Below are positions 5,833 to 27,994 of a stretch of DNA of 32,000 nucleotides, in pieces (position 1 is the first letter of the stretch; each line of letters starts with the position of its first letter). Origin of the DNA: Polyangiaceae bacterium (GTDB lineage: Bacteria; Myxococcota_A; Polyangia; Polyangiales; Polyangiaceae); the NCBI GenBank assembly GCA_044376115.1, contig JBILLK010000028.1, forward strand, positions 102,389 through 134,388. The letters run 5' to 3'. The position numbers were made by a program, and so were the translations under genes. The notes beneath the pieces were generated by a model. It was given only the letters and a program-made list of their open reading frames with translations. It searched no databases and was not told the origin of the DNA.

Positions 5833-6522
5833 CTAGCGGGTTCGGATCCCGCCCAGCAAGATCTCAGAAATCAGCCACTTTCGACGCTCCAACGAGGCCC
5901 CGCCGTGTTCCTCCGGGAGCAGGATCCCGAGCACTGGCGCATCCACGATGGGGTAGAGAATCAACGACAGCCCGGCTCGCACCATTTCACTCGGCTGGAC
6001 ATCGGAGCGCAGCTCACCCGTCCCTTGGAGGTTGGTGGTGATCTCCACCACCGCAGAGAGCAGCGCGTGCGTCCGCTCCTGAATGATGCTCACCAGCGTG
6101 CCCGCCCCCGCGAGCACCTCACTGCGCATGATCGCCAGCAGTTTCTGGTGGGCTGCGGAGAAGTCCACCATCACGTCAACGAAACCACGGACGATCCCTT
6201 CCACGTCGCGCTTGGTCTCGAGCACGTGCCAGGAGGCCGTGGACATCTGATCCACGGCGCGCTTCACCACGGCCTCATAAAGCCCGTGCTTGTCGGCGAA
6301 ATAATGATGAATCAGCGCTGGCTGAACCTGCGCACCCACTGCGATCTCACGCAGCCGGGCACCCGCAAAACCGTGGGCCGCAAACTCGGCCTCGGCTGCG
6401 TCTAGAATCCGCTCTTGGGTGAGCGCCGAGCTTCTCTCGCGCTTAGGCGCTGGACCCCGGGCGCTCTGCTGAGCTTCCAGCGTGCGCTTGTCGTCGTCGT
6501 CGTCGCTTTCAGGCGGTGGCAT
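5833..6522 (-). CDS. TetR/AcrR family transcriptional regulator
   Basis: HTH region ERILDAAEAEFAAHGFAGARLREIAVGAQVQPALIHHYFADKHGLYEAV. Overlaps the stop of the upstream di-iron gene by 14 nt, which implies one operon. Confidence 0.85.
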   Translation of the reverse strand: MPPPESDDDDDKRTLEAQQSARGPAPKRERSSALTQERILDAAEAEFAAHGFAGARLREIAVGAQVQPALIHHYFADKHGLYEAVVKRAVDQMSTASWHVLETKRDVEGIVRGFVDVMVDFSAAHQKLLAIMRSEVLAGAGTLVSIIQERTHALLSAVVEITTNLQGTGELRSDVQPSEMVRAGLSLILYPIVDAPVLGILLPEEHGGASLERRKWLISEILLGGIRTR

Positions 6523-7552
6523 CCCACGTTTCGTACTGAATCACGCGCAACTCTTCAAAGCCCTTCCGCACTTTGGGCGTAAGAAGTCCAAGCCGCTTAA
6601 CATTTGGCACGATTTTGGAGAACAGCAGAGTCTGAAAAGTCTGCATGATCGGGCTATTTCGCACCGCGTCGAGGCAGTCGGCCACCGGCAACCCGAGATT
6701 CTCCCAAACCTCTTGCATGAGAAAGCGATCTCGCATTAGGCGCGAGGCCTCGATGATGAACTCCTCCCGGTCGCGCAGCTCCGACTCGGACATGTCGTCG
6801 TAGACCCCGCGCAAGGAGAGGACGCCAAACGCAACATGGCGCGACTCATCGAGCATGATGCGATGAACGATGTCGCGGATCAGCGGCTCGTTCGAGGTCT
6901 GGGAGATGATGCCAAACGCGGCGAGCGCCAAGCCCTCTACCATGATCTGCATGCCCAAGAACTTCAGGTCCCAGCGGGTTTCACGCAGGATCTCGTCGAG
7001 CAGTTGCTTGAGGTGCGGCGAGACCGGGTACGTCAGCTCGATCTTCTCACGCAAGTAACGCTCATAGGCCTCGACGTGCCGCGCCTCATCCATCACCTGC
7101 GAAGCGGCGTAGAGCTTGGCCTCGGCGTCAGGCACCGAGCACACGATCTGCGACGTGGCGAGCAATGCACCCTGCTCACCGTGCAGGAAGTTCGACAACA
7201 AGTAGGAGGACGCGTGCCGCCGAACTTCGGGCAACTCACGCTTGGAGAGCCGGTTCCACACGTCCGTCCCGAAGATCGGGATGAACTGATCCGGCACATT
7301 CTCCGCCTGAGGATCCACCGGCGTTCCCCACGCAAGCTCGGTCTTGGCGTTCCACTGATGGTCCTTCGCCTTCTCGTAGAGCGCTCGCAGATCAGCGCGG
7401 CCGTCGTAGCCCAGCGTGAAAGCCGTATCCAACTCGGAGCGAAGCCAGTCCACCCCAACAGGCTCCGCATCGTTCTGAGCGCGCAGCGTTCGACGCGGTT
7501 CACTCGGGCGGGGAACGGGAATCGTTGGAACGAACTTCTCGGCTGCGCTCAT
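6509..7552 (-). CDS. Ferritin-like di-iron (AurF / R2-like) oxygenase family protein
   Basis: Two carboxylate-bridged di-iron signatures, DEARHVEAYERY and DESRHVAFG, plus MVEGLALAAF helices. AGGAGG RBS upstream of the ATG. Confidence 0.7.
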   Translation of the reverse strand: MSAAEKFVPTIPVPRPSEPRRTLRAQNDAEPVGVDWLRSELDTAFTLGYDGRADLRALYEKAKDHQWNAKTELAWGTPVDPQAENVPDQFIPIFGTDVWNRLSKRELPEVRRHASSYLLSNFLHGEQGALLATSQIVCSVPDAEAKLYAASQVMDEARHVEAYERYLREKIELTYPVSPHLKQLLDEILRETRWDLKFLGMQIMVEGLALAAFGIISQTSNEPLIRDIVHRIMLDESRHVAFGVLSLRGVYDDMSESELRDREEFIIEASRLMRDRFLMQEVWENLGLPVADCLDAVRNSPIMQTFQTLLFSKIVPNVKRLGLLTPKVRKGFEELRVIQYETWDATA

Positions 7553-8879: not shown

Positions 8880-8998
8880 GGCTTGAATCGATGGCAGGTG
8901 TGACGCTGCGTCAAGCGATTGTCCGAAGTCGATGGTTCTCTGACGCCGGAGCCACTTCGTTCATTAAGGCAACCGGAACTCTGGCCGTCAATCAGGAC

Positions 8999-10642
8999 AT
9001 GCGAATTGTAACAAGTCGTTGGTTGGCCGCGATGATGAGCTCTCTCTCGTTTGCGGCTTCGGGATGCGAGCTGATCGCGAACACAGATCGTACGACCATC
9101 GGCGCGGGTGGCGCGGGCGGCGCGGGCGGCGGCGACCAGGTCGGCGGCTCGGCGGGCAGCGTCGCACAAGGCGCGAGTGATGCCGGAGCTGGTGGCGCTG
9201 GCAGCGCCTCTACCAACGGCGGTGGCGGCGCGGGTGCAGCAGGCGGCGACGGTGGCGCGGGCAGTTCCACTGTCGGTGCAGGCGGTGAAGGCGGCGCAGG
9301 CGGTGAAGGCGGTGCGGGCGGTGAAGGCGGTGCGGGCGGTGAAGGCGGCGCAGGCAGTTCCACCGTCGGTGCAGGCGGCGCAGGCGGTGAAGGCGGTGCG
9401 GGCAGTTCCACCGTCGGCGCGGGCGGCGCAGGCGGTGATGGCGGCTCGGGTGGCGCAGGCGGTGCGGGAAGCTCCACCGTCGGCGCGGGTGGCGCAGGCG
9501 GTGAGACGGGCCCTGGCGGCGCAGGCGGTGACGGCGGCGCGGGCAGTTCCACCGTCGGCGCGGGCGGCGCAGGCGGCGCAGGTGGCGCAGGTGGCGCAGG
9601 TGGCGACGGTGGTGCAGGCGGCTCGGGTGGTGTCCCGCCCGGCGAAACGTGCGCCGACCCGATGCTAGTGGAGGTCGTTCTCGACACAACCTACTTCACC
9701 AACGGGGAGATCTTCACGACCTCCACCAACGAGATTGAGAGCTTCTGCACCGACGCCGATCCCAATGTCCCCGACACTTGGGCTGACGTGGTTTACGCAG
9801 TCCAAATCAGTGATGCGTGCAGCGCTTCGTTCGTCGTGCAGAGTTCGACCGACGCGGAGATCTCCTTGCGGTCCGATTGCGGCGTCGAGGAGTACTGCGT
9901 CAACACGGTCGTTGGCGGCGGTGGGCAGGAAAACCTTTCCGTTCCATTGGAGGCGGGCACCTACTTCCTCAACATTCAGTCGGATCTACCCACTCCGTAC
10001 ACCTTGCATATCTACTGCAACACCCCAGCCTGTGGTGACAGCTTCCTGAACCCCGGCGAAGCGTGTGATGATCACAACACCGACGATGGCGATGGCTGTA
10101 GCTCGCTTTGCACGATTGAGGCGGCAGACCCACTGGTTGAGGACTGCGCCAGCGTAAGCCCTCAAGCAGCGCACCAGCTCGTGGCTGGCGCTCAGTTCCT
10201 CACCCCAGTCGGTGCGGCAGCGACCACGCTTGGTGCCCTCGACAACGAGCACGGTACTTGTCAGCTTGCACCCGCTGACCCGGCGGAGTCGTATGCGCCA
10301 GACCAGGTCTACAAGATGCGGTCGCCAGTTCCCGGTATGGCCACGGTCACGCTCGGGCTCGACCCAGCCGGGATCCCTTATTGCGGTGCTGACGTGAACG
10401 CGGAGCCCTCGTTGCCCTATTCATCTGGTTGCTACGACCGCTCGCTCTTCATTCGCGAGGCCGATTGCACCGCGGGAGCTGAGGTCGCCTGCACAGAGGG
10501 AACCAATTGGTGGGACGTGGAACAAGCCCTCATTCCTATCGCCGCAGACACGGACTACTACGTATTCGCCGACGGCTGGTTGGCCGGCTACGGATATGAT
10601 GTTGGTTCGTACACCATCCAAGTCGAGTTTACGCCCGACTGA
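8999..10642 (+). CDS. Lipoprotein with a Gly-rich repeat region and a Myxococcus-type cysteine-rich repeat
   Basis: I prefer the start at the in-frame ATG at 8999 (MRIVTSRWLAAMMSSLSFAASGC, lipobox) over the ORF-track start at 8891, which would leave only 11 bp to the divergent gene. Five GAGSSTVGAGGAGG repeats. CGDSFLNPGEACDDHNTDDGDGCSSLC resembles the Myxococcus cysteine-rich repeat. Confidence 0.7.
   Translation: MRIVTSRWLAAMMSSLSFAASGCELIANTDRTTIGAGGAGGAGGGDQVGGSAGSVAQGASDAGAGGAGSASTNGGGGAGAAGGDGGAGSSTVGAGGEGGAGGEGGAGGEGGAGGEGGAGSSTVGAGGAGGEGGAGSSTVGAGGAGGDGGSGGAGGAGSSTVGAGGAGGETGPGGAGGDGGAGSSTVGAGGAGGAGGAGGAGGDGGAGGSGGVPPGETCADPMLVEVVLDTTYFTNGEIFTTSTNEIESFCTDADPNVPDTWADVVYAVQISDACSASFVVQSSTDAEISLRSDCGVEEYCVNTVVGGGGQENLSVPLEAGTYFLNIQSDLPTPYTLHIYCNTPACGDSFLNPGEACDDHNTDDGDGCSSLCTIEAADPLVEDCASVSPQAAHQLVAGAQFLTPVGAAATTLGALDNEHGTCQLAPADPAESYAPDQVYKMRSPVPGMATVTLGLDPAGIPYCGADVNAEPSLPYSSGCYDRSLFIREADCTAGAEVACTEGTNWWDVEQALIPIAADTDYYVFADGWLAGYGYDVGSYTIQVEFTPD
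9100..9640. repeat. In-gene GC-rich tandem repeats encoding (GAGSSTVGAGGAGGxGG)n
   Basis: The unit gggcagttccaccgtcggcgcgggcggcgcaggcggtga recurs five times with variable numbers of ggcggtgaaggcggtgcg subunits between copies. Confidence 0.75.
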
Positions 10643-10670
10643 GTCATAGCGAACCGCACGTTTGCAGCAG

Positions 10671-10701
10671 GGCCTCGAGGGTTACGACCTTCGAGGCCTT
10701 T
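10671..10701. terminator. Hairpin between convergent genes, candidate bidirectional terminator
   Basis: ggcctcgagg gttacgac cttcgaggcc followed by ttt. It lies between the stop at 10642 (+) and the stop at 10704 (-). Confidence 0.45.
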
Positions 10702-10703
10702 GC

Positions 10704-11339
10704 TCATAGAAGCTCGTCACTCGTTGCGTTGTCCTCTTCGCTTTGAAGATGACAGGCGTGGCAGCGCATACCGGCCGAGGAATTGAAGGCCGCTTTGACC
10801 GCAACGACCTTTGCGCAGCCGATGCAGGCCACGGTTTTTTCGCGCGCAACTTCTCGTGGGGCGGAGCGATAACCATCTCCGGGCACGACCTCCACCTCAG
10901 TATTTGCCGAGTCTCGCCGACCCAAGTGGCAAGCTTCACACAGCTCCCCGGTCACTCGGCGGTAGCTTTGCGCGCGCAGAACTCGGGCCTTGCAGCTGGT
11001 GCAGGTCACCCACGCGGCCTCTTCTTGCTTGCGCGTCGCAATCTCCTCACGCAGCGCGCGCGAGCGCTCCGCGAAGGCCATCGCGTCGAAGGAGTTGTTG
11101 CGGGCAAGGGCCTCACACAACACCATCACGGTGATCTCCAGATCGCGTACCCGCGCCTCGAGATCGCTCGTCGCTGCAGGCATTGGCGTCGTCGGGATTT
11201 CGGGGACCCCGCTCGCCCAAGGGGTCTCGTCCCTGCGGCTTGGCGTCTGCGACAATAGACCGCGAACCCTGCTCGCCTCGCTTGGCGATAGGTTGGGAGC
11301 AATCAGAGCGCCAAGTAGCTGCAAGAATGGTTCGGCCAT
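10704..11339 (-). CDS. Hypothetical protein with two CxxC...CxxC zinc-ribbon modules
   Basis: CTSCKARV...CEACH and CIGCAKVV...CHACH pairs, preceded by a coiled-coil-like segment. Divergent from the kinase at 11399. Confidence 0.55.
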   Translation of the reverse strand: MAEPFLQLLGALIAPNLSPSEASRVRGLLSQTPSRRDETPWASGVPEIPTTPMPAATSDLEARVRDLEITVMVLCEALARNNSFDAMAFAERSRALREEIATRKQEEAAWVTCTSCKARVLRAQSYRRVTGELCEACHLGRRDSANTEVEVVPGDGYRSAPREVAREKTVACIGCAKVVAVKAAFNSSAGMRCHACHLQSEEDNATSDELL

Positions 11340-20042: not shown

Positions 20043-20735
20043 CTACTCGGTCGGTGGATCGGTGTTGCGTGCGGTCTCCAGCTTGGCCTTCGGCGTAACC
20101 GGGTCCACTTCGCGAGAGCCACCGTCGATCGCGTCAACGATGTACACGATCGGGCTAGCGAGGAAGGCCGTGTCCACTTGCAGCGCCAGGACGAAGGAGC
20201 TCTGGCGTCGATCGTCCAAGCCCACGCGCGCTTGTGCGACGAGTCCGAAGGACATGACGTAGCCATCGCTGTCGTAGCTGCGGCTTCCGAAGAATAGCGT
20301 GCTGGCTATGCCAGCCTGGGCGTCGAAGTCGTCGTCCGCAACTCGAACGTACGGGCCTACCGAGAGCACCATCGGAAAGGTGTCGAGCACCGGCAGCAGC
20401 AGCGAGACGCCGCCACCGAGCGCAACGTCGTCGAAGGCCTGCGAAAGCGCCTCGAGATACGGCCCGACACCGAAGTCGCGTGTACCAGTACGGCCGAATA
20501 GAACGTCGCCATGGAACCCGACGTGGAAAGCGGGCTCTTCAAATACCTGGGCGTGCTGCCCGCGCGCCGCGACGCCTGCGACCAAGCCAACACTCGCCTG
20601 CGGCTCGGCCTGAGCGAAGGCTGGCCAAAGCAAGCTTACTGCCAGACTCAGGATCGCCCCCACGGGGCATCCCAGCTGGGAACAGGCCCTGGGCGGGGGC
20701 CGTTCCTCGATTTTCCGCTGCTGGGCAAGAGTCAT
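20043..20735 (-). CDS. Hypothetical secreted protein, possibly beta-barrel
   Basis: I prefer the start at the internal Met (MTLAQQRK...), because the longest ORF (to 20786) would abut the zapA start. Signal-like ILSLAVSLLWPAFAQA, then alternating hydrophobic pattern. Confidence 0.5.
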   Translation of the reverse strand: MTLAQQRKIEERPPPRACSQLGCPVGAILSLAVSLLWPAFAQAEPQASVGLVAGVAARGQHAQVFEEPAFHVGFHGDVLFGRTGTRDFGVGPYLEALSQAFDDVALGGGVSLLLPVLDTFPMVLSVGPYVRVADDDFDAQAGIASTLFFGSRSYDSDGYVMSFGLVAQARVGLDDRRQSSFVLALQVDTAFLASPIVYIVDAIDGGSREVDPVTPKAKLETARNTDPPTE

Positions 20736-20784
20736 TCGGTTCACTGCATCCACCGTCGATGGAGATGACGCGCCTCGTGGTAGC

Positions 20785-21102
20785 ATGCCCGAGATGGCAG
20801 CACGCCCTGTTGAGCTACGCGTTGGGGGACAGTCCTATCGTGTCGTCTCATCTGCGAGTGCCGAGGATCTAGAGCGCCTCGCCACGGTGGTGGACGAGAA
20901 GCTTACCTCGCTGGTTCCCCCTGGAAAGCCCCTCAGTCCTCAGAGCCTGCTGTTGGTCGCCATGGCGCTCGCACACGACGTCGAAGTAGAGCGCGCAAAG
21001 GCCGAACGGGTACGTTCTCATTCACGGTCTGCCTTGCGCACGATGCTAGGCGAGGTGGAGGAGACCTTGGCGCTTGCCGATCAGGCCCTTCCACGGACCT
21101 AA
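20785..21102 (+). CDS. zapA: Cell division protein ZapA-like
   Basis: VELRVGGQSYRVVSSASAEDLERLATVVDEKL and LLLVAMALAHDV match the ZapA fold pattern, about 100 aa. Alternative ATG at 20794. Confidence 0.65.
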   Translation: MPEMAARPVELRVGGQSYRVVSSASAEDLERLATVVDEKLTSLVPPGKPLSPQSLLLVAMALAHDVEVERAKAERVRSHSRSALRTMLGEVEETLALADQALPRT

Positions 21103-21104
21103 CG

Positions 21105-22214
21105 TTGAGCGGGATGAAGTTCCTGACGGAGGAGCTCGAGTCGCTACGAGCTCAGAATCTGCTTCGGGAGACGGCTGCTACACCACCGGCCGGTTTGGTG
21201 CTTTGCTCGAATGACTACCTTGGGTTAGCCGAAGTCCCAGCCACTCGAGCCGCGGGGCTACCCGGCGGTTCTGGGGCCGCAGCCTTGGTAACCGGCTATC
21301 ACGAGGCTCATCGGGTCGCCGAAGCTGCGTTGGCGGAGTGGGTCGGGCTACCAGCATCGCTGCTGTTCAGCTCGGGCTACTGCGCCAACGTTGGGGTCGT
21401 CAGCGCGTTGGCCGGCCCGCCCGACCTCGTGCTTTCGGATCGCCTCAACCACGCCTCGATCATTGACGGCTGTCGCCTTTCGCGCGCGACAGTGCAGGTG
21501 TTCGAACATTGCTCGCTGGACGACGCCACCCGTCAGCTCGAACAACAGCGCTCAAAGTTTCGCCGTGCGTTCGTTGTCACTGAAAGCTACTTCGGCATGG
21601 ATGCAACCACCGCCGATCTTCGGTCGCTTCGGGCGTTGTGCGATCGTTACGACGCCGCTTTGATCGTCGATGAGGCTCATTCGCTCGGCGTGTTTGGCTC
21701 AGAGGGCGGGGGGCTTTGTCGGTCGGTGGGAGTCGTTCCCGACGTTCTGATTGGTACGCTGGGCAAGGCAGTAGGCCTTCATGGTGCGTTCGCGGCTGGG
21801 CGCAAAGAGCTCCGGACCTTTCTGTGGAATCGCGCACGCAGCTTTGTGTTTTCGACCGCAACCAGTCCGGCCTCGGCGGCTGAGATTCCTGAGCGGGTCC
21901 AGCTTGTGCGGGCGGCGGACGACCGGCGCAGGGATCTGCTGGATTGGTCAGCCGAGATCCGCACTGTGCTGGCTAGCGGCGGACAAGAGGTTTTTGGAGA
22001 CGGGCCGATCATTCCCTGGATCTTGGGCGAGGCCACGTCAGCCCTCGCTGTTCAGCGGCGACTCCTTGAGCAGGGTGTCGTTGGGCTCGCCATCCGACCT
22101 CCGACGGTCCCGCTTGGGCAGGCCCGGGTTCGGCTTGCAGCTCGTGCAGGGCTCACTCACGAGCAACGTCGGCTCGCCCGTCAGGCGTTGACGATCGTCG
22201 CGCAGACCGGTTGA
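21105..22214 (+). CDS. bioF: 8-amino-7-oxononanoate synthase-like PLP enzyme (alpha-oxoamine synthase family)
   Basis: CSNDYLGLA, DEAHSLGVFG and GTLGKA (PLP Lys) motifs. 369 aa fits BioF better than Kbl or SPT. TTG start at 21105 or ATG at 21114. Confidence 0.7.
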   Translation: MSGMKFLTEELESLRAQNLLRETAATPPAGLVLCSNDYLGLAEVPATRAAGLPGGSGAAALVTGYHEAHRVAEAALAEWVGLPASLLFSSGYCANVGVVSALAGPPDLVLSDRLNHASIIDGCRLSRATVQVFEHCSLDDATRQLEQQRSKFRRAFVVTESYFGMDATTADLRSLRALCDRYDAALIVDEAHSLGVFGSEGGGLCRSVGVVPDVLIGTLGKAVGLHGAFAAGRKELRTFLWNRARSFVFSTATSPASAAEIPERVQLVRAADDRRRDLLDWSAEIRTVLASGGQEVFGDGPIIPWILGEATSALAVQRRLLEQGVVGLAIRPPTVPLGQARVRLAARAGLTHEQRRLARQALTIVAQTG

Positions 22215-22290
22215 CGGCGCTACAGCACCCGCAACGGTTATCGGCTCGTCGTGCCTGTGAGGCTGCACGTCGGTGCCGGTGTACAACTGA

Positions 22291-22320
22291 CGCTGGTTCG
22301 ATGACCAGCGTTATTTGCGC
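22291..22320 (+). terminator. Rho-independent terminator candidate after bioF
   Basis: CGCTGGT-tcgatg-ACCAGCG, a 7-bp stem, followed by TTATTTGCGCTTT. Confidence 0.5.
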
Positions 22321-22491
22321 TTTGGCTGTTGTCGTTTTGAGGCCGACGATGTCGTGGCCACGTTACGGCTGCGGCTTTCCACGTGGCTCGCGCGTTGGTT
22401 CACGTGGTGGGAGGGAGGGTTTTGAGGTGCTGCGGGAGACGGCACGCGAAAAGGCTGGGCCTCGGTACTCGCGCGGGCGCGATCCGGCGGT

Positions 22492-22990
22492 GTTGCCGTT
22501 CCCGAGCCCTCCCAAAATCACTGCCAGGGTCTCAATAATTGACGCGACCGACCCGGCTCCGGCCTGAGGGCCCGCCCCGCTGCCTCGATCCTGCGTTCCA
22601 AAATCACTGCCAGGGTCTTAACAATCCGGCTCCGGCCCTCAGGGCCACTCCCACTGCCTCGATCGGGCGTTGGCCCCGTTCCCAAGCCCTCCCAAAATCA
22701 CTGCCAGGGTCTTAACAATCACCCCGGACATCCGGCTCTAGCCCTCAGGGCCACTCCCACTGCCTCGATCGGGCGTTGGCCCCGTTCCCAAGCCCTCCCA
22801 AAATCACTGCCCGGGCCTTAACAATTGAGCGGCTGACCCGGCCCCGGCCCTCGAGGCCCCGCCCGCTGCGTCGGTCGGGCGTTGGCCTCGTTCCCCTGTC
22901 CCCGAGATCGTAGCCAAGGGTCTTAACAATTGAGCCTCGAGGGCTGGGGCCGCCCCGCCCGCTGCGTCGATCGGGCGTTGGCCTCGTTCA
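22492..22990. repeat. Tandem repeat array A: five units plus a partial sixth, 74-106 bp each, non-coding
   Basis: Units start at about 22492, 22595, 22669, 22775, 22881 and 22977 (partial). Conserved blocks are GTTGGCCCCGTTCCCAAGCCCTCCCAAAATCACTGCCAGGGTCTTAACAAT, a GC palindrome (GGCCCTCAGGGCC or CCTCGAGG variant), and CTGCCTCGATCGGGC. Confidence 0.85.
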
Positions 22991-23007
22991 GTCCGGCTTG
23001 GGCTAAC

Positions 23008-23023
23008 TGTTTCACGTGAAACT
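23008..23023. promoter_or_regulatory. parS: parS site 1 (ParB-binding centromere-like palindrome)
   Basis: TGTTTCACGTGAAACT matches 15 of 16 positions of the canonical TGTTNCACGTGAAACA. The 14-bp core GTTTCACGTGAAAC is a perfect palindrome. Confidence 0.8.
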
Positions 23024-23771
23024 GATCGTTGGTCTTCTCCTGGCAGCTCGCCTCATCGCCCGACACTTTTCTACGTCGCGGTCGAACCGGATGCATCGCG
23101 AGCGCGGCAACTCTAGAACGCGCGTAGCCACAACCGTGACCCTATTAGCCCGGTTCGCGACTCAGCACCGACTTCGCTCACCCCAGGACGCAACGCCAAC
23201 CACGAGCCGCCGCCCCGGACCTAGCCATCAATCAACCGCACAACCATGATGTCGACACCGCGTCCCGTTGACACGTTCAACGGATTCTCACGGGAGGTCG
23301 ATCTGACACGGGGCCGGGGACTCCTCGGAACGAAGCGCGTAACCGTTTTTAGCTGGAGGCGGTTCGGAGCCTCTTCGCGGTAGAGCGACAACGGCACCAC
23401 CTCGAAACTAGTGAGCTAGAACCGTTCGACAACCGGGCAAGGCGATAGCTTTGTTGGCCCGTAAGGCACACCCCGCGTCGGAATCCCATCCGTGGCCCAC
23501 CCCACTGCGCAAAGGTGCGCTCGACCAACTAACCCTATTGCTGGTCGAACGGTGTGCGCGCCAATCCCAGGGCACCAGCATTCCGCGCTCAAACCAGCTT
23601 GAACGTATTCACAAGAATCTCGCTGAAGCTTGCCTGTACGTCGCTCTATCAGTCGTCGTGCTTCCACCAATACGAAGCTGCTGAACCGTTCTGCTCAAGC
23701 CCAAGCCACGACATGAGCGGTCTGCTGAATCGCCAGCCTCCGGCAACCAACGGTATCCGATTATCACCCAA

Positions 23772-24100
23772 GGTGGATGCAGTTGGCAGAATGACTCGAA
23801 GTCCCTGCGCGGGAGCCGGTCTGAGGTCCCAAAGGCCATCGACTTGGACGAGATATCAGATCGAATGTCGACGCAATGACGCGAGCTCGAGTGGAAGACT
23901 CCGCGGAGGTCTCCGGAGCGCCGAAGGCACGAACTAATGACTCGAGCCTTCTTCCGAAGAACCGGTCGATGGCCCCTTTGAAACTTCTAGTTTGGCACGA
24001 GTGATTCCGCTGAAGGCGGATGCAGTGGACAGAATGACTCAGGCCTTCTTCCGAAGAACCGGCCGATGGCCCTTTGAAACTTCTAGTTTGGCACGAGTGA
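23772..24100. repeat. Repeat family B: two near-identical 68-69 bp units 97 bp apart, plus a diverged upstream copy
   Basis: AATGACTC..GCCTTCTTCCGAAGAACCGG.CGATGGCCC(C)TTTGAAACTTCTAGTTTGGCACGAGTGA at 23936-24004 and 24033-24100. The leader GG(T/C)GGATGCAGT..CAGAATGACTC occurs at 23772-23797 and 24015-24040. Confidence 0.8.
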
Positions 24101-24256
24101 ATACTCTGCCTCGGTACTACTCTCGTTCGGGATACGTGCGACCGAAACGGTCGGATTCTTGTTGCCCCCATACGACTTCTAGCTGCCGCGAATTGCACCA
24201 CCGCTCCGACGCCCTCCTAACGAAAACCCCGTACGACTTGCCTTCCACAGTGACGC

Positions 24257-24272
24257 TGTTTCACGTGCAACA
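24257..24272. promoter_or_regulatory. parS: parS site 2, one core mismatch
   Basis: TGTTTCACGTGCAACA matches 15 of 16 positions of the consensus (A to C at position 12). Confidence 0.65.
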
Positions 24273-24563
24273 GCCCCGTATAGTTCCCAGCCACCCCCCG
24301 TCCAACAACGTCCACGACGTGCCGTGAGTGGTTTAACGAGCTGCAGCCGGCGGCTCGGTCCAATGAGTACCGGCCCGTGGCCCACCCCATCGCCTTATCC
24401 TCACCGTCGACTACCTATCGGCGCCGACCTCGCTAACCACGACCCGTTGCTCCCGTTCGACGTTCTCCAGAGCGCCAAGAACCCAGGCTCAAGCTAAGTC
24501 CGGAGACCAAACTGCGCCCACACCGACGCCAATACGCCAGTCCCGACAGTGACGGCCAAGCTG

Positions 24564-24608
24564 GCGGGCTAGTCCAGTCGCTGACCAGCGGGCTAGTCCA
24601 GTCGCTGA
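24564..24608. repeat. 21-bp exact tandem duplication with a 3-nt spacer
   Basis: GCGGGCTAGTCCAGTCGCTGA at 24564-24584 and again at 24588-24608. Confidence 0.85.
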
Positions 24609-25130
24609 GCATAGGGATTGACCCTCGCGCCGCGAATCCTCTTCGGCCCGGGCGTTCCTGCGTTAAACGTTCGGTTCCGAAAGCGCGGTTTGACTTAGAT
24701 GTCGACGGTCGATGCTGCCGTTCACCTCCAACCGGTAAGTCGCGGGCGGCTTAGGGCAAGCCGAAGGCACCTGGCGATGGTATGCCGGGTCGAGCGGTCG
24801 ACGCCCGCAGCGTCGAAGCTCGGTGCCCTTGGTACGGCAACCAACGATGCACTGACCGCCCACTAGTGAGATGGCAAACCACTCGGTTCCCTCTACGCCG
24901 CTATTGCGCCCAGCCGGTGCAGCCTCCCGATTGTGGCCACTGCCACCTAGCATGTCTCCAGTTGCAGTGTCGCTGCCAGAAACCGATGCGCGGGACTCGC
25001 GAAGCTAAGTCCAACACCCCCGCGACGGCCAGACCACGGCGGGGCCCGAAAGCGGCCAACCAACCTAGGCTCTGCCTGCAGAAAATACCTACTCCACGTG
25101 CGAACTGGGCCAGGTCCGAAACCTCGACAC

Positions 25131-25146
25131 TGTTTCACGTGAAACC
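25131..25146. promoter_or_regulatory. parS: parS site 3
   Basis: TGTTTCACGTGAAACC matches 15 of 16. It shares the 17-mer ACTGTTTCACGTGAAAC with site 1. Confidence 0.8.
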
Positions 25147-25187
25147 GCCCTCGGGACCCTAAACGACACCACCAGCGCCGAGATGAA

Positions 25188-25835
25188 TCAGCGAACCTGC
25201 CGAAGGGTGCCTCGATCCATCTCCCAGGTCGTCGGATTCAACGCCTCAAACCGGGCCGGATCATGGGCGACGACCACCACTACGGCATCGGCAATTACCC
25301 CGCGCACCGCGCCCAACAAAAGCTCAAGTCCGGCCGAATCCAAACCTGTCGTCGGCTCATCCAAAAGCACCAAACTCGGCCGGTGCATCAACGCTCTGGC
25401 GAGCGCGACTCGTTGCTTCTGACCCCTCGAATTGGTCCTTAAAGGTCGCTCCGCAAACGCCCGAAGCTGAAACCGCTCGCGTAACTCCACCCAAGCCGCC
25501 TCTGGATCCAGCCCATAGAACTCCGCTGCCAAGCGAAGGTTCTGCTGCCCACTGAGGTCCGGGTAAACCAACGCTTCGTGCGACAGCCAACCGATCTCGG
25601 CCCGCACCTCCGAATCATCGGCCTCGAACGGCTCAAACCTAACCTGCCCCGAGGTGGCCTTGACAGTAGTTCCGAGTACCCCGAGCAACGTGCTCTTACC
25701 CGACCCATTGGCCCCAACGACGACGGAAAGCTGGCCGGACTCAAACACCGCCGACGCTTCACGGAGCGCAACCGTCGCGCCAAACCGCTTGGTCACTCGC
25801 TCTAAAACCACCCGCGTTACACGCCGCTCGGTCAT
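25188..25835 (-). CDS. ABC transporter ATP-binding protein (CcmA-like small ATPase), no permease gene adjacent
   Basis: Walker A GANGSGKST, signature-like NSRGQKQRVALARAL, Walker B LVLLDEPTTGLD. I prefer the ATG at 25835, which overlaps the kinase stop as ATGA. Confidence 0.85.
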   Translation of the reverse strand: MTERRVTRVVLERVTKRFGATVALREASAVFESGQLSVVVGANGSGKSTLLGVLGTTVKATSGQVRFEPFEADDSEVRAEIGWLSHEALVYPDLSGQQNLRLAAEFYGLDPEAAWVELRERFQLRAFAERPLRTNSRGQKQRVALARALMHRPSLVLLDEPTTGLDSAGLELLLGAVRGVIADAVVVVVAHDPARFEALNPTTWEMDRGTLRQVR

Positions 25836-27568
25836 CGCGACCGTCGCTCCCATTCCTCAATCAGGAACGGAGCATCCACCACCGTCAGGTCGTTCTCTTC
25901 CACCGTAGGTGTGTCGTCACCGACCGACCCAGCGTCTATCAACTGCGTCGGTTCCTCGTCCGAGGCCGAAGCCGAAAACGTTGAATCGGCAGTCTCAAAC
26001 GCCATCATCGATTGCGGGAGCGGAGGCGGAGGCGGCTCCGTCCTCCGCCTCGCCGTCACGCCCCCCGCCAACCGGCTGGGAACCCTGGGAACCGTAGACG
26101 GCGCAACCAAACTCCCTCGCGCCGGATCAACAACCGCCTCCGCAGGCCGACCCACAGCGCGCTCAACTACCTTGCCACCCTCTGCACCTTCGGTCGACTT
26201 GAGCCGCTCCGTCCCACGTCCCGGACGCCCTTCGCGGAGATCGGGACGAGGCACCTCCGACTCCACCGCTCGCGGCTGAACCGTTCTCCGTGACGCAGGC
26301 GAAGGCGTCGGCGGGTGCGCCACCGCTTCCACCCCGACAACGACCTGAACTGGCTTGACGTCATGCGGAACCGCCTGCCGAGCCCGCGTTTGCCGATCGC
26401 CATCGTCCGTCTGCACCATCCGCTCAGTAGCCCGAGGCGCCGCTATTGGAGCCCTGCGGGAACCGACGGACTCTCCGGACCCTCGCTCACTTGCTCGCGA
26501 AACGACTCGCTGCGCCTGCCTGAACGGTACCAACGCTTTCGCAAACTCTCGTGCCGTGGCGAACCGCTCGTCGCGTTTCTTCGCTAGAGCTCGATGGATC
26601 GCATTGCTCAACCCAACTGGTATCCGCGGATTCACGACAGCCGCAGGCTCGGGATTCCCCGTAAGTATCTGAACGAGCAGGGCGTTGTAATTCTTCGCGA
26701 TGAACGGCCTGGTTCCCGTGAGCGCCTCATAGAGCAACACACCAAGCCCCCATACATCAACACGACCATCTAGCTGGCGCTCACCCATCGCCTGCTCGGG
26801 TGCCATATAATAAGGTGTACCCATCACCATGCCTGTCCGAGTGAGATGATGTGGTTGATCATCCCCAATGGTGGCCTTCGATATGCCAAAATCCAGCACC
26901 TTCGCGAGCACCCCTCCCTCGGCCCCAAGGAAGATATTGTCTGGCTTCATGTCACGGTGAATGACACCGATGGCATGCGCCGCATCCAACGCGGCAAGCG
27001 CCTGCAGCGCGACCTCAACCCCCAGCTCCACCGCGATGCGCCCCTCGCGCTCCAGCCGATTGGCCAACGTTTCGCCACTAAGCCTCTCCATCACCAGGTA
27101 GGGCTGACCACCGGAGACAACCTCGCCAAACTCGAGCACGTTGCAGATATTGGGATGCGTGATTCGGGACACTACGGTCGCCTCGTGCCGCATCCGAGCA
27201 ACCGAGTCCTTCTTCTCCGCGTGCTCGGGTTTGAGCACCTTCAGCGCGACTCGAACCCCCGTGCGCTCCGAAAGCGCCTCGTAGACCGTTCCCATCCCGC
27301 CTTGCCCCAACACCCCAAGCAAACGAAAACGCCCACGCAGCGCTTGCTTGAGGTCATCCTCCGATGATGACTGCGGGCTTACCTTCTTCGCTATGGGTGC
27401 GGGTCGCGTTTGACGCGCGATCGCACGACGCTCTGCAGGCCGCTCACGCTCTGCGGGTCGCTCACGCTCTGCGGACCGATCGCGCTCCGCACCAATTGCA
27501 AGGCCTGTCGTCGGGCATACCGCCCTCGACGCCACATGCAACAGCCCGCAGTGGGGACACCGAATCAT
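25832..27568 (-). CDS. Ser/Thr protein kinase with an N-terminal zinc ribbon and a Pro/Arg-rich C-terminal tail
   Basis: MIRCPHCGLLHVASRAVCPTTG, then GQGGMGTVYEA, VALKVLK, HRDMKPDN, DFGISK and GTPYYMAPEQ. No TM segment seen. Confidence 0.85.
   Translation of the reverse strand: MIRCPHCGLLHVASRAVCPTTGLAIGAERDRSAERERPAERERPAERRAIARQTRPAPIAKKVSPQSSSEDDLKQALRGRFRLLGVLGQGGMGTVYEALSERTGVRVALKVLKPEHAEKKDSVARMRHEATVVSRITHPNICNVLEFGEVVSGGQPYLVMERLSGETLANRLEREGRIAVELGVEVALQALAALDAAHAIGVIHRDMKPDNIFLGAEGGVLAKVLDFGISKATIGDDQPHHLTRTGMVMGTPYYMAPEQAMGERQLDGRVDVWGLGVLLYEALTGTRPFIAKNYNALLVQILTGNPEPAAVVNPRIPVGLSNAIHRALAKKRDERFATAREFAKALVPFRQAQRVVSRASERGSGESVGSRRAPIAAPRATERMVQTDDGDRQTRARQAVPHDVKPVQVVVGVEAVAHPPTPSPASRRTVQPRAVESEVPRPDLREGRPGRGTERLKSTEGAEGGKVVERAVGRPAEAVVDPARGSLVAPSTVPRVPSRLAGGVTARRRTEPPPPPLPQSMMAFETADSTFSASASDEEPTQLIDAGSVGDDTPTVEENDLTVVDAPFLIEEWERRSR
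27441..27476. repeat. 18-bp tandem repeat within the kinase 5' region, encoding (ERERPA)n
   Basis: cgctcacgctctgcgggt followed by cgctcacgctctgcggac, with more diverged flanking copies on both sides. Confidence 0.75.
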
Positions 27569-27569
27569 C

Positions 27570-27994
27570 TCTTCCTGCGCACCTTCGCGACCTTGAGCCT
27601 ACAGGGAGCAAACCCATTCGCGAAGAACCGTTTCCAACTGACCACGTCGCATCCAACCCGCACGACGGTTAACTACCTGTGGGAAGCCTCCGGACCAGGC
27701 CTGGTGAAAACCCCCTCTACCCGGCCAACGACAAACTGTTCACACCTTCTCAACGCCCAGTCCCAATTTGAGACCCCAACAAGCCCGCTCCTCCAACACC
27801 CTTATCCAATTGTATTTAATAGTCTTTTCCCCTTATCCCCAGAATCCACAGGACCTACTACTACGACTTCTAGATATCTCATTGATCTCACTTTGAGACG
27901 AAGAGCACCTGTTGGTCTCAGTCGTAGCGTGAATGTCCAACACGCTCCTTTTCTCTAGAACAACCTGCTAAAGCCATTCCCAGGAGTTCAACGG
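27570..27994. promoter_or_regulatory. Divergent promoter region upstream of dnaN with an AT-rich patch and DnaA-box-like 9-mers (possible oriC or DnaA-regulated dnaN promoter)
   Basis: TTATCCAAT (27802-27810), TTATCCCCA (27833-27841) and GAATCCACA (27842-27850) against the consensus TTATCCACA. AT-rich ATTGTATTTAATAGTCTTTT (27809-27828). AGGAG RBS before the ATG at 27995. Confidence 0.4.

Follow-up and report, generated by a model that had tools for sequence, protein, structure and literature searches.

We analysed a 32-kb stretch of DNA (the window, 32,000 nt in all) from an uncultured lake bacterium that its DnaN protein places in the Polyangiaceae (Myxococcota), the nearest named genomes being metagenome-assembled genomes (MAGs) from lakes and soil, Sorangium, Minicystis and Polyangium; our subject is a tandem array of non-coding repeats that lies just before a chromosomal parS site. 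The array forms the opening of a gene-free gap between the convergent genes of a BioF-like aminotransferase and an ABC ATPase, and stands at the outer, aminotransferase-side edge of an origin-proximal parS cluster: the window carries three parS sites where 0.07 are expected, all in this gap, together with a second repeat family. The genes dnaN-recF-gyrB follow 2.8 kb past the gap, and Pfam searches of the major open reading frames (ORFs) found no dnaA, parA or parB in the window. Coordinates are collected in Table 1.

Table 1. Features of the parS gap and its surroundings (window coordinates).
Feature	Position	Strand	Remarks
Gene-free gap, ~3 kb	22215-25187	.	ORF lists, Pfam, contig gene calls; holds array, three parS sites, second repeat family
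BioF-like aminotransferase	21105-22214	+	left border of gap; convergent with ABC ATPase
ABC ATPase	25188-25853	-	right border of gap
Array unit U1	22484-22597	+	unit alignment
Array unit U2	22598-22675	+	78 nt; first 16 nt and 13 internal nt missing (unit alignment)
Array unit U3	22676-22781	+	unit alignment
Array unit U4	22782-22887	+	unit alignment
Array unit U5	22888-22983	+	unit alignment
Stub of sixth unit, TCGTTC	22984-22989	+	unit alignment
Core copy 1, CCCTCCCAAAATCACTGCCAG, exact	22507-22527	+	100% identical to L104 1920-1940; logo; 21-mer scan
Core copy 2, GCGTTCCAAAATCACTGCCAG	22593-22613	+	5' 5 nt deviate owing to U2 truncation; logo, 21-mer scan
Core copy 3, exact	22687-22707	+	logo, 21-mer scan, gap-versus-gap blastn
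Core copy 4, one mismatch (CCCG for CCAG)	22793-22813	+	logo, 21-mer scan
Degenerate fifth core in U5, CCCCGAGATCGTAGCCAAGG	22898-22919	+	62% copy in repeat family; unit alignment
parS1, TGTTTCACGTGAAACT	23008-23023	.	15/16 to consensus
Second tandem family, ~96-nt structured unit	23762-24144	-	full copy 23951-24047, plus partial copies
parS2, TGTTTCACGTGCAACA	24257-24272	.	parS scan
parS3, TGTTTCACGTGAAACC	25131-25146	.	parS scan
Kinase-dnaN intergenic region, likely oriC	27569-27994	.	GC 0.538; TTATCCAAT, TTATCCCCA, GAATCCACA; position homologous to predicted oriC of So ce56

The array is a head-to-tail series of five units (114, 78, 106, 106 and 96 nt) followed by a 6-nt stub, at window positions 22484-22989, with a GC content of 0.66; Tandem Repeats Finder (TRF) reports a period of 106 at 22624-22895 (86% matches, score 397), and no ORF of at least 100 aa spans it in the ORF lists and translations, which marks it as non-coding. 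An earlier note on this DNA had placed tandem non-coding repeats here, close to parS1, and on both counts it holds: parS1 starts at 23008, 18 nt beyond the last repeat base. The blocks it named (CCAAAATCACTGCCAGGGTCTTAACAAT, a GC palindrome and CTGCCTCGATCGGGCGTTGGCC) were all recovered in register across the window units by a repeat search, CCAAAATCACTGCCAGGGTCTTAACAAT in four good copies and one degenerate copy, and its 28-mer occurs four times at no more than two mismatches against 0.00 expected (100 shuffles). It was also right to set a CRISPR array aside, the units being contiguous and wholly repeated and the window ORFs being free of cas domains. U2 and U3 are 97% identical over their shared columns, other pairs of units 70-88% (pairwise alignment), and U5 is the most diverged.

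The array exists in the organism, and assembly error does not account for it. The JGI metagenome contig Ga0453196_0000020 is identical to the window, and five other samples or assemblers (L087, L088, L089, L091 and L093, which share the same ZapA gene) match the window at 99.98-100% identity, with zero differences inside the array as far as their contigs reach. All five contigs stop within the array, at window positions 22532, 22664, 22724, 22741 and 22825. These independent, matching assemblies reproduce the unit order U1-U2-U3-U4, the odd short U2 included, and within the species they reveal no array variation over U1-U4. Only the source contig carries U5 and the junction to parS1, so the number of units in all may have been collapsed or expanded there.

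What the array preserves over evolutionary time emerges from a sister lineage, represented by three contigs: L006 (a contig end from a Lake Erken MAG), L104 (which spans the whole gap) and L105. Its aminotransferase is 81% identical to that of the window in protein and the flanking genes about 81% in nucleotides; within it, the flanks of L105 are 99% identical to those of L104, and L104 and L006 are 92.7% identical. All three contigs carry a tandem array in the same place, 70-75 bp before their own parS1 (18 nt in the window, ~75 nt in L006 and 70 nt in L104). Under sensitive blastn of the window gap against the L104 gap, a core 21-mer is 100% identical in surroundings that cannot be aligned. 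Besides it, this alignment takes in the parS sites, the second repeat family (70-77%) and a stretch of 120 nt that follows the aminotransferase stop (66%; window 22235-22354, L104 1638-1757); of the unique non-coding sequence in the gap, nothing but this stretch can still be aligned with L104.

The core, CCCTCCCAAAATCACTGCCAG, comprises the 4 nt upstream of the 28-nt block of the earlier note and the first 17 nt of that block, and this narrows the functional candidate from the ~100-bp unit or the 28-nt block to the 21 nt shared with the sister lineage. A sequence logo of 16 core copies holds 1.7-2.0 bits through the core and little beyond. Copies number 4-5 in the window, 6 in L006 and 6 in L104, every one of them in a single orientation (+), facing parS1. 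The core is asymmetric, with no inverted repeat and only a small CTG-C-CAG symmetry, and its overlap with a parS half-site amounts to TCAC. By comparison, the GC palindrome, the GGTCTTAACAAT half of the 28-nt block and the CTGCCTCGATCGGGCGTTGGCC block do not occur in the arrays of L006 and L104, which identifies the palindrome and CTGCCTCGATCGGGCGTTGGCC as lineage-specific filler. In the sequences compared, the core is the sole part of the array kept between the two lineages, and its place just before parS1 is kept with it.

Around the core, the architecture is fluid. The L006 array has periods of 74 and 52 nt with two cores in each 74-nt unit, L104 proceeds in steps of 42, 24, 52 and 43 nt, and core-to-core periods run from 86 to 106 bp in the window versus 22 to 54 bp in the sister lineage. 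A window unit and an L006 unit nevertheless align with a score of 37 (shuffle mean 16.2, maximum 32 in 1000 shuffles). In the alignments GGTCTTAACAAT, the second half of the 28-nt block, falls on a degenerate second core copy, CTTAACAATCAC of the window being the counterpart of the second L006 core, CCTAAAATCAC; this correspondence suggests that the ancestral module was probably a doublet of cores 22 bp apart. The array interior differs even between L104 and L105, despite their nearly identical flanks, and L104 and L006 have different unit architectures. Judged from these alignments, duplications and deletions rework the array fast and leave the core in place, in agreement with the expansion and homogenisation in place that had been proposed from the likeness of U2 and U3.

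Such behaviour is also that of a functionless minisatellite (a variable number tandem repeat, VNTR), built up by slippage and unequal recombination in a permissive 3-kb gap, with the core as a remnant of the ancestral unit. This is the main rival explanation and we judge it somewhat unlikely. Descriptively, the array is a minisatellite: it is head-to-tail and non-coding, its period exceeds 10 bp, its central units are homogenised and its layout varies among L104, L105 and L006; short-read assemblies break at it, other syntenic Polyangiaceae lack it, and unrelated repeats occupy the same gap elsewhere (a 92-nt array of ~12 copies in L009, (CGTGCC)n in L106 and L115). A neutral remnant, however, should have diverged like its unalignable surroundings, whereas the 21-mer is fully identical across the lineages and kept in 4 + 6 + 6 copies amid the turnover. 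Nor does a neutral array provide a reason for the core spacings to fall on multiples of 10.5 bp across six different periods.

This phasing is seen in both lineages. Cores are spaced by 86, 94, 106 and ~105 bp in the window (the last value taken from the degenerate-copy repeat family), by 22, 52 and 54 bp in L006 and, in L104, by the steps given above; spacings of 22-24 bp occur in the sister lineage only, and the longer ones of the window are all near multiples of 10.5 bp as well. The ten distinct spacings (22, 24, 42, 43, 52, 54, 86, 94, 105 and 106) all lie at most 0.3 turn off such a multiple. Their mean deviation is 0.10 turn versus 0.256 under a null of +/-5 bp jitter (p ~1e-4, or ~5e-4 with the spacings collapsed to six), in a statistic that counts spacings of shared ancestry as independent, so the phasing is supportive and not conclusive. 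At 10.0 and 11.0 bp the signal is gone from the same spacings.

Outside the arrays, scans of 43.6 kb of this genome, the remaining 16.7 kb of L006 and 1.57 Mb of Polyangiaceae loci found no further copy of the core, with the exception of one match inside a dnaN gene. The earlier note had held that dispersed copies would betray a generic repeat, and as far as this sequence extends the array is not dispersed. A local cluster of a dispersed genomic repeat, of the repetitive extragenic palindrome (REP) or miniature inverted-repeat transposable element (MITE) type, would account for the assembly breaks, and the array does resemble such elements in being short, GC-rich, partly palindromic and intergenic, the palindromes of the window units recalling REP stems. 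But beyond the lack of dispersal in the sequence covered, the sister lineage shares the non-palindromic core and not those palindromes, and contigs run variable distances into the array and do not stop at its first unit. We therefore regard this explanation as extremely unlikely.

The setting of the array is more widespread than the array itself. The order hyp-ZapA-aminotransferase, a gap with 1-4 parS sites, and ABC-(kinase)-dnaN-recF is kept in ~45 Polyangiaceae loci, with gaps of 0.2 to 5 kb; a parS-bearing gap between aminotransferase and ABC ATPase, 2.5-6 kb upstream of dnaN, is also present in Sorangium, Minicystis, Chondromyces and Polyangium, and a literature search returned no paper on Polyangiaceae parS or on such a gap. 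In L007, L008, L011, L012, L013 and L020 (So ce56), the gap is without a substantive tandem array. Absence from syntenic Polyangiaceae makes the array genus-specific, and any function it has would be accessory and not a general requirement of parS. Other members of the family have repeats of their own: in the clade of L106, L114 and L115 (65% aminotransferase identity), (CGTGCC)3-5 blocks flank parS instead (L106 9226-10899, L115 1460-1800), and in L115 an inverted pair of these blocks brackets two parS sites 27 bp apart. L009 carries, at 5980-7180, a non-coding array of ~12 copies of a 92-95-nt unit between two parS sites of its gap. In the loci compared, tandem repeats of some kind thus recur in the parS gap of Polyangiaceae. 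The L009 unit was also considered as a homologue of the window unit, but their similarity is not significant against shuffles (p = 0.33 and 0.035) and the idea of an ancient array was dropped.

Searches further afield gave no additional arrays of this type. A profile of the five units (nhmmer) run against 80 Polyangiaceae loci returned only weak matches, to the L006 core; an exact-pattern scan for the window-type block AAAATCACTGCCNGGGNCTNAANAAT gave 0 matches in genome and metagenome contig collections, which evidently do not include the source contig; viral contigs gave 0 matches to the array; and PLSDB blastn with both array types gave chance matches only (E >= 0.2). A metagenome scan for core doublets returned nine loci (L095-L103), rejected as tandem satellites with unrelated units on contigs of 41-60% GC that share chance 13-mer matches. 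Among them, L096 carries Myb, EF-hand and IQ genes and is eukaryotic; here (1995-2119 and 10189-10809) and in L103 (1393-1560), 23-nt tandem repeats of CCTCCCATACAAATCACTGCCAG lie upstream of Myb and EF-hand genes. CCTCCCATACAAATCACTGCCAG agrees with the window core at 20 positions with one 3-nt gap, and although its extra CCTCCCA match exceeds what the search required, this is probably coincidence. Another Polyangiaceae MAG has a 22-nt unit, AATCATTCCTATCG..., repeated seven times next to where an ABC ATPase gene has its 3' end (L040 1527-1680), on a contig with different left-hand synteny and no parS. A literature search with the motif string returned unrelated primers only.

Among known systems, plasmid iterons offer the closest likeness. 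In the Rep-bound iterons of F (ori2/incC) and P1 (incC/incA), an asymmetric sequence of ~17-22 bp is repeated directly, always in one orientation and at whole helical turns, in a cluster beside a partition site. The array resembles them in having several asymmetric 21-bp direct repeats of a single orientation beside parS and, in L006, the classic 22-bp iteron spacing. The earlier note had thought of iteron-like protein-binding modules, and the conserved core and its phasing keep this as the best reading; genuine plasmid-type iterons are a different matter, since the major ORFs of the window contain no Rep family (Pfam), the array has neither an AT-rich unwinding element nor DnaA boxes next to it, and no PLSDB sequence matches it. 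The array also departs from plasmid iterons in lying on a primary chromosome beside a canonical parS and, in the window, in its spacing of 86-106 bp. In view of these differences, and of those from sopC given below, we describe the array as working like an iteron array and do not call it one.

True replication iterons, whether of the chromosomal origin or of a second, plasmid-derived origin with a Rep-type initiator, appear very unlikely to us. It does speak for them, besides the 21-bp direct repeats and the 22-bp spacing in L006, that dnaN has no dnaA beside it in the window, that the So ce56 oriC is predicted beside dnaN (PMC2650636) and that the array lies ~4.6 kb from the corresponding predicted oriC. 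This distance follows from taking the kinase-dnaN spacer as the likely origin: it is the AT-richest stretch of the window and carries three DnaA-box-like 9-mers within 50 bp, and in Sorangium cellulosum So ce56 the oriC is predicted in the same spacer, beside dnaN and not dnaA, with the box TTATCCCCC (Gao & Zhang, 2008, PMC2650636). But that very spacer is a better oriC candidate than the array, which is missing in relatives of identical synteny and has no similarity to PLSDB plasmids or viral contigs. The DnaA-box patterns TTATCCACA and TTATCCCCC occur at chance level and are not enriched at the array, and the core was rejected as a DnaA box on the same scans. Cumulative GC skew peaks at the array (~22.5 kb; positive over 13.5-22.5 kb, negative over 22.5-32 kb); in relatives, too, the skew is negative over dnaN-recF and becomes positive ~5 kb further on, and we dropped the peak as an informative signal, reading it as a local effect.

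The earlier note had also likened the array to sopC. In F-plasmid sopC, a 43-bp unit is repeated in tandem twelve times, and SopB binds a 16-bp inverted repeat in each unit. Both are tandem series of longer units, each with one short conserved motif (the SopB site in sopC, a candidate site here), at a partition locus, and there the likeness ends: the core has no inverted repeat, parS is separate and outside the units, the period is not fixed, neither parA/parB (sopA/sopB) nor a rep gene is found in the window, and the palindromes of the window units are absent from L006 and L104. A ParB centromere of the sopC type is accordingly not supported. Direct-repeat arrays upstream of parAB are described for secondary replicons of Deinococcus (PMC7671480). 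These and the direct-repeat centromeres of type Ib/II resemble the array in their direct repeats, which serve as partition or maintenance cis-sites, but sit directly upstream of their own parAB and double as operator, whereas here no par operon lies within 32 kb.

Other identities of the core or the units fared no better. Half-parS, IHF, CtrA and dif readings of the core do not fit, when compared by eye with the consensus sequences. A conserved small ORF, within the array or next to it, was considered as the possible gene of a binder and rejected: tblastx of the window gap against the sister gap finds no conserved ORF, the only matches being those of the repeats, spread over several frames, and the translated ORFs bear no relation to each other.

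Alternatively, each unit might be a transcription element, either a promoter (sigma-54-like, on the minus strand, CTGGCAGTGATTTTGG versus TGGCAC-N5-TTGC) or a short RNA gene. The reverse complement of the core has TGGCA with TTG 10 nt later (by eye), resembling a sigma-54 -24 element; a sigma-54 activator is encoded ~5.5 kb left of the window start, and myxobacteria are rich in such activators. The GG is present, but the near-invariant -12 GC reads GG in the window and AG in half of the L006 copies, and on this ground the sigma-54 promoter was rejected; transcription from such promoters would moreover run antisense into the aminotransferase gene at its 3' end. The array has no sigma-70 promoter or terminator pattern, folding of the units on both strands is no better than shuffles (z -1.2 to +0.35), there is no tRNA, and no Rfam match reaches the gathering score (the only sub-threshold match has E = 0.44). 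Sister periods of 22-54 bp are also too short for a promoter and an RNA in each unit. Taken with the variable orientation described below, this leaves a transcription element quite improbable, even though a likely structured RNA repeat is found in the same gap.

That repeat is the second, ~96-nt family (also at L006 899-1282 and L104 2673-3236). Its unit combines a 13-bp outer stem (GGCACGAGTCATT...AATGACTCGTGCC) around a CC(G/A)CC-TTCG-GG(C/T)GG hairpin with a following GGCC-TTCG-GGCC hairpin; at one base pair 6 copies have GC and 4 have AU, a compensatory change, and the C(UUCG)G loops suggest a structured RNA. The unit has no Rfam match, and the matches of a covariance model are confined to this gap in the genus of the window, with a single weak exception at window 20722-20795. 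The orientation of the core array relative to the 96-nt repeats differs between the lineages, a further point against a transcription element. Between parS1 and parS2 (window 23008-24272, L104 2178-3236), the window sequence apparently runs the other way round from that of the sister lineage: the 96-nt repeats match on the opposite strand, and the window parS2 flank matches the L104 parS1 flank in reverse. This points to an inversion whose breakpoints were the palindromic parS sites. Independent short-read contigs from the dnaN side (L002 and L003) start inside the 96-nt family, at window 24071 and 23767; with contigs from the other side ending in the array, the whole gap is an assembly trap from both sides. 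Elsewhere in the window, at 8891-10642, a 583-aa ORF has a long Gly/Ala-rich region with a 9-nt periodicity (repeats at 9239-9630) and a weak match to DUF4215, a cysteine-rich repeat.

We propose that the array is a row of same-oriented, helically phased, iteron-like candidate sites for a sequence-specific DNA-binding protein at the edge of the centromere, a reading that we put forward tentatively, at slightly less than an even chance. It draws on an identical, asymmetric 21-bp motif amid scrambled DNA, on the single orientation and whole-turn spacing of its copies and on its fixed place beside parS1 in two lineages. The site would be the 21-bp core CCCTCCCAAAATCACTGCCAG, occupied by the protein on one face of the helix, and cooperative occupancy could build a higher-order nucleoprotein complex; the rest of the ~100-bp window unit, with its GC palindrome and CTGCCTCGATCGGGCGTTGGCC, would be filler, co-amplified with the core by unequal recombination or slippage. 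By its position and by analogy with plasmids, the complex might mark a boundary of the ParB-parS partition complex and perhaps limit the spread of ParB, a role that we consider unlikely as matters stand. This would not be without precedent: on the F and P1 plasmids, initiator-iteron nucleoprotein complexes block ParB propagation (bioRxiv 10.1101/345066). Alternatively, the complex could tether the centromere region to another cell structure.

Several points weigh against this proposal, over and above the shared ancestry of the spacings. The core is found in two lineages only, so that its conservation is essentially one interspecies comparison, and the scan of this genome covered 43.6 kb. No lineage-specific gene adjoins the array as a candidate for the binder, and its neighbours are common to relatives that lack it. 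In look and behaviour the array is a variable minisatellite. The earlier note had counted absence from syntenic close relatives, with no phenotype, as a refutation, and here the outcome is divided: where the aminotransferase is 55-65% identical, relatives have parS in the gap without the core array, while the sister lineage has it.

As usually described, a chromosomal parS site is an isolated 16-bp palindrome, and often it lies within a gene. Here, three or four such sites, together with two tandem repeat families specific to the genus, occupy a gene-free stretch of 3 kb beside the predicted origin. To our knowledge, bound arrays that limit ParB spread have so far been found on plasmids only. 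If the array is only a minisatellite, it still explains the assembly breaks at this locus and offers a marker for strain typing. Should the 21-mer turn out to be bound by a protein, chromosomal partition or the origin region would gain a new accessory component, and the 21-mer would serve as a defined bait sequence for finding that protein, although the uncultured host slows tests of array function. More broadly, we can imagine, as an improbable generalisation, that fast-evolving, lineage-specific arrays flank the origin-proximal centromeres of Polyangiaceae (the 21-bp core arrays, the (CGTGCC)n blocks of a sister clade and the 92-nt array of another genus) and recruit dedicated proteins that delimit or anchor ParB-parS. 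Were this so, such arrays would be a bacterial counterpart of centromeric satellite DNA, and the 21-mer would mark a new centromere-associated factor.

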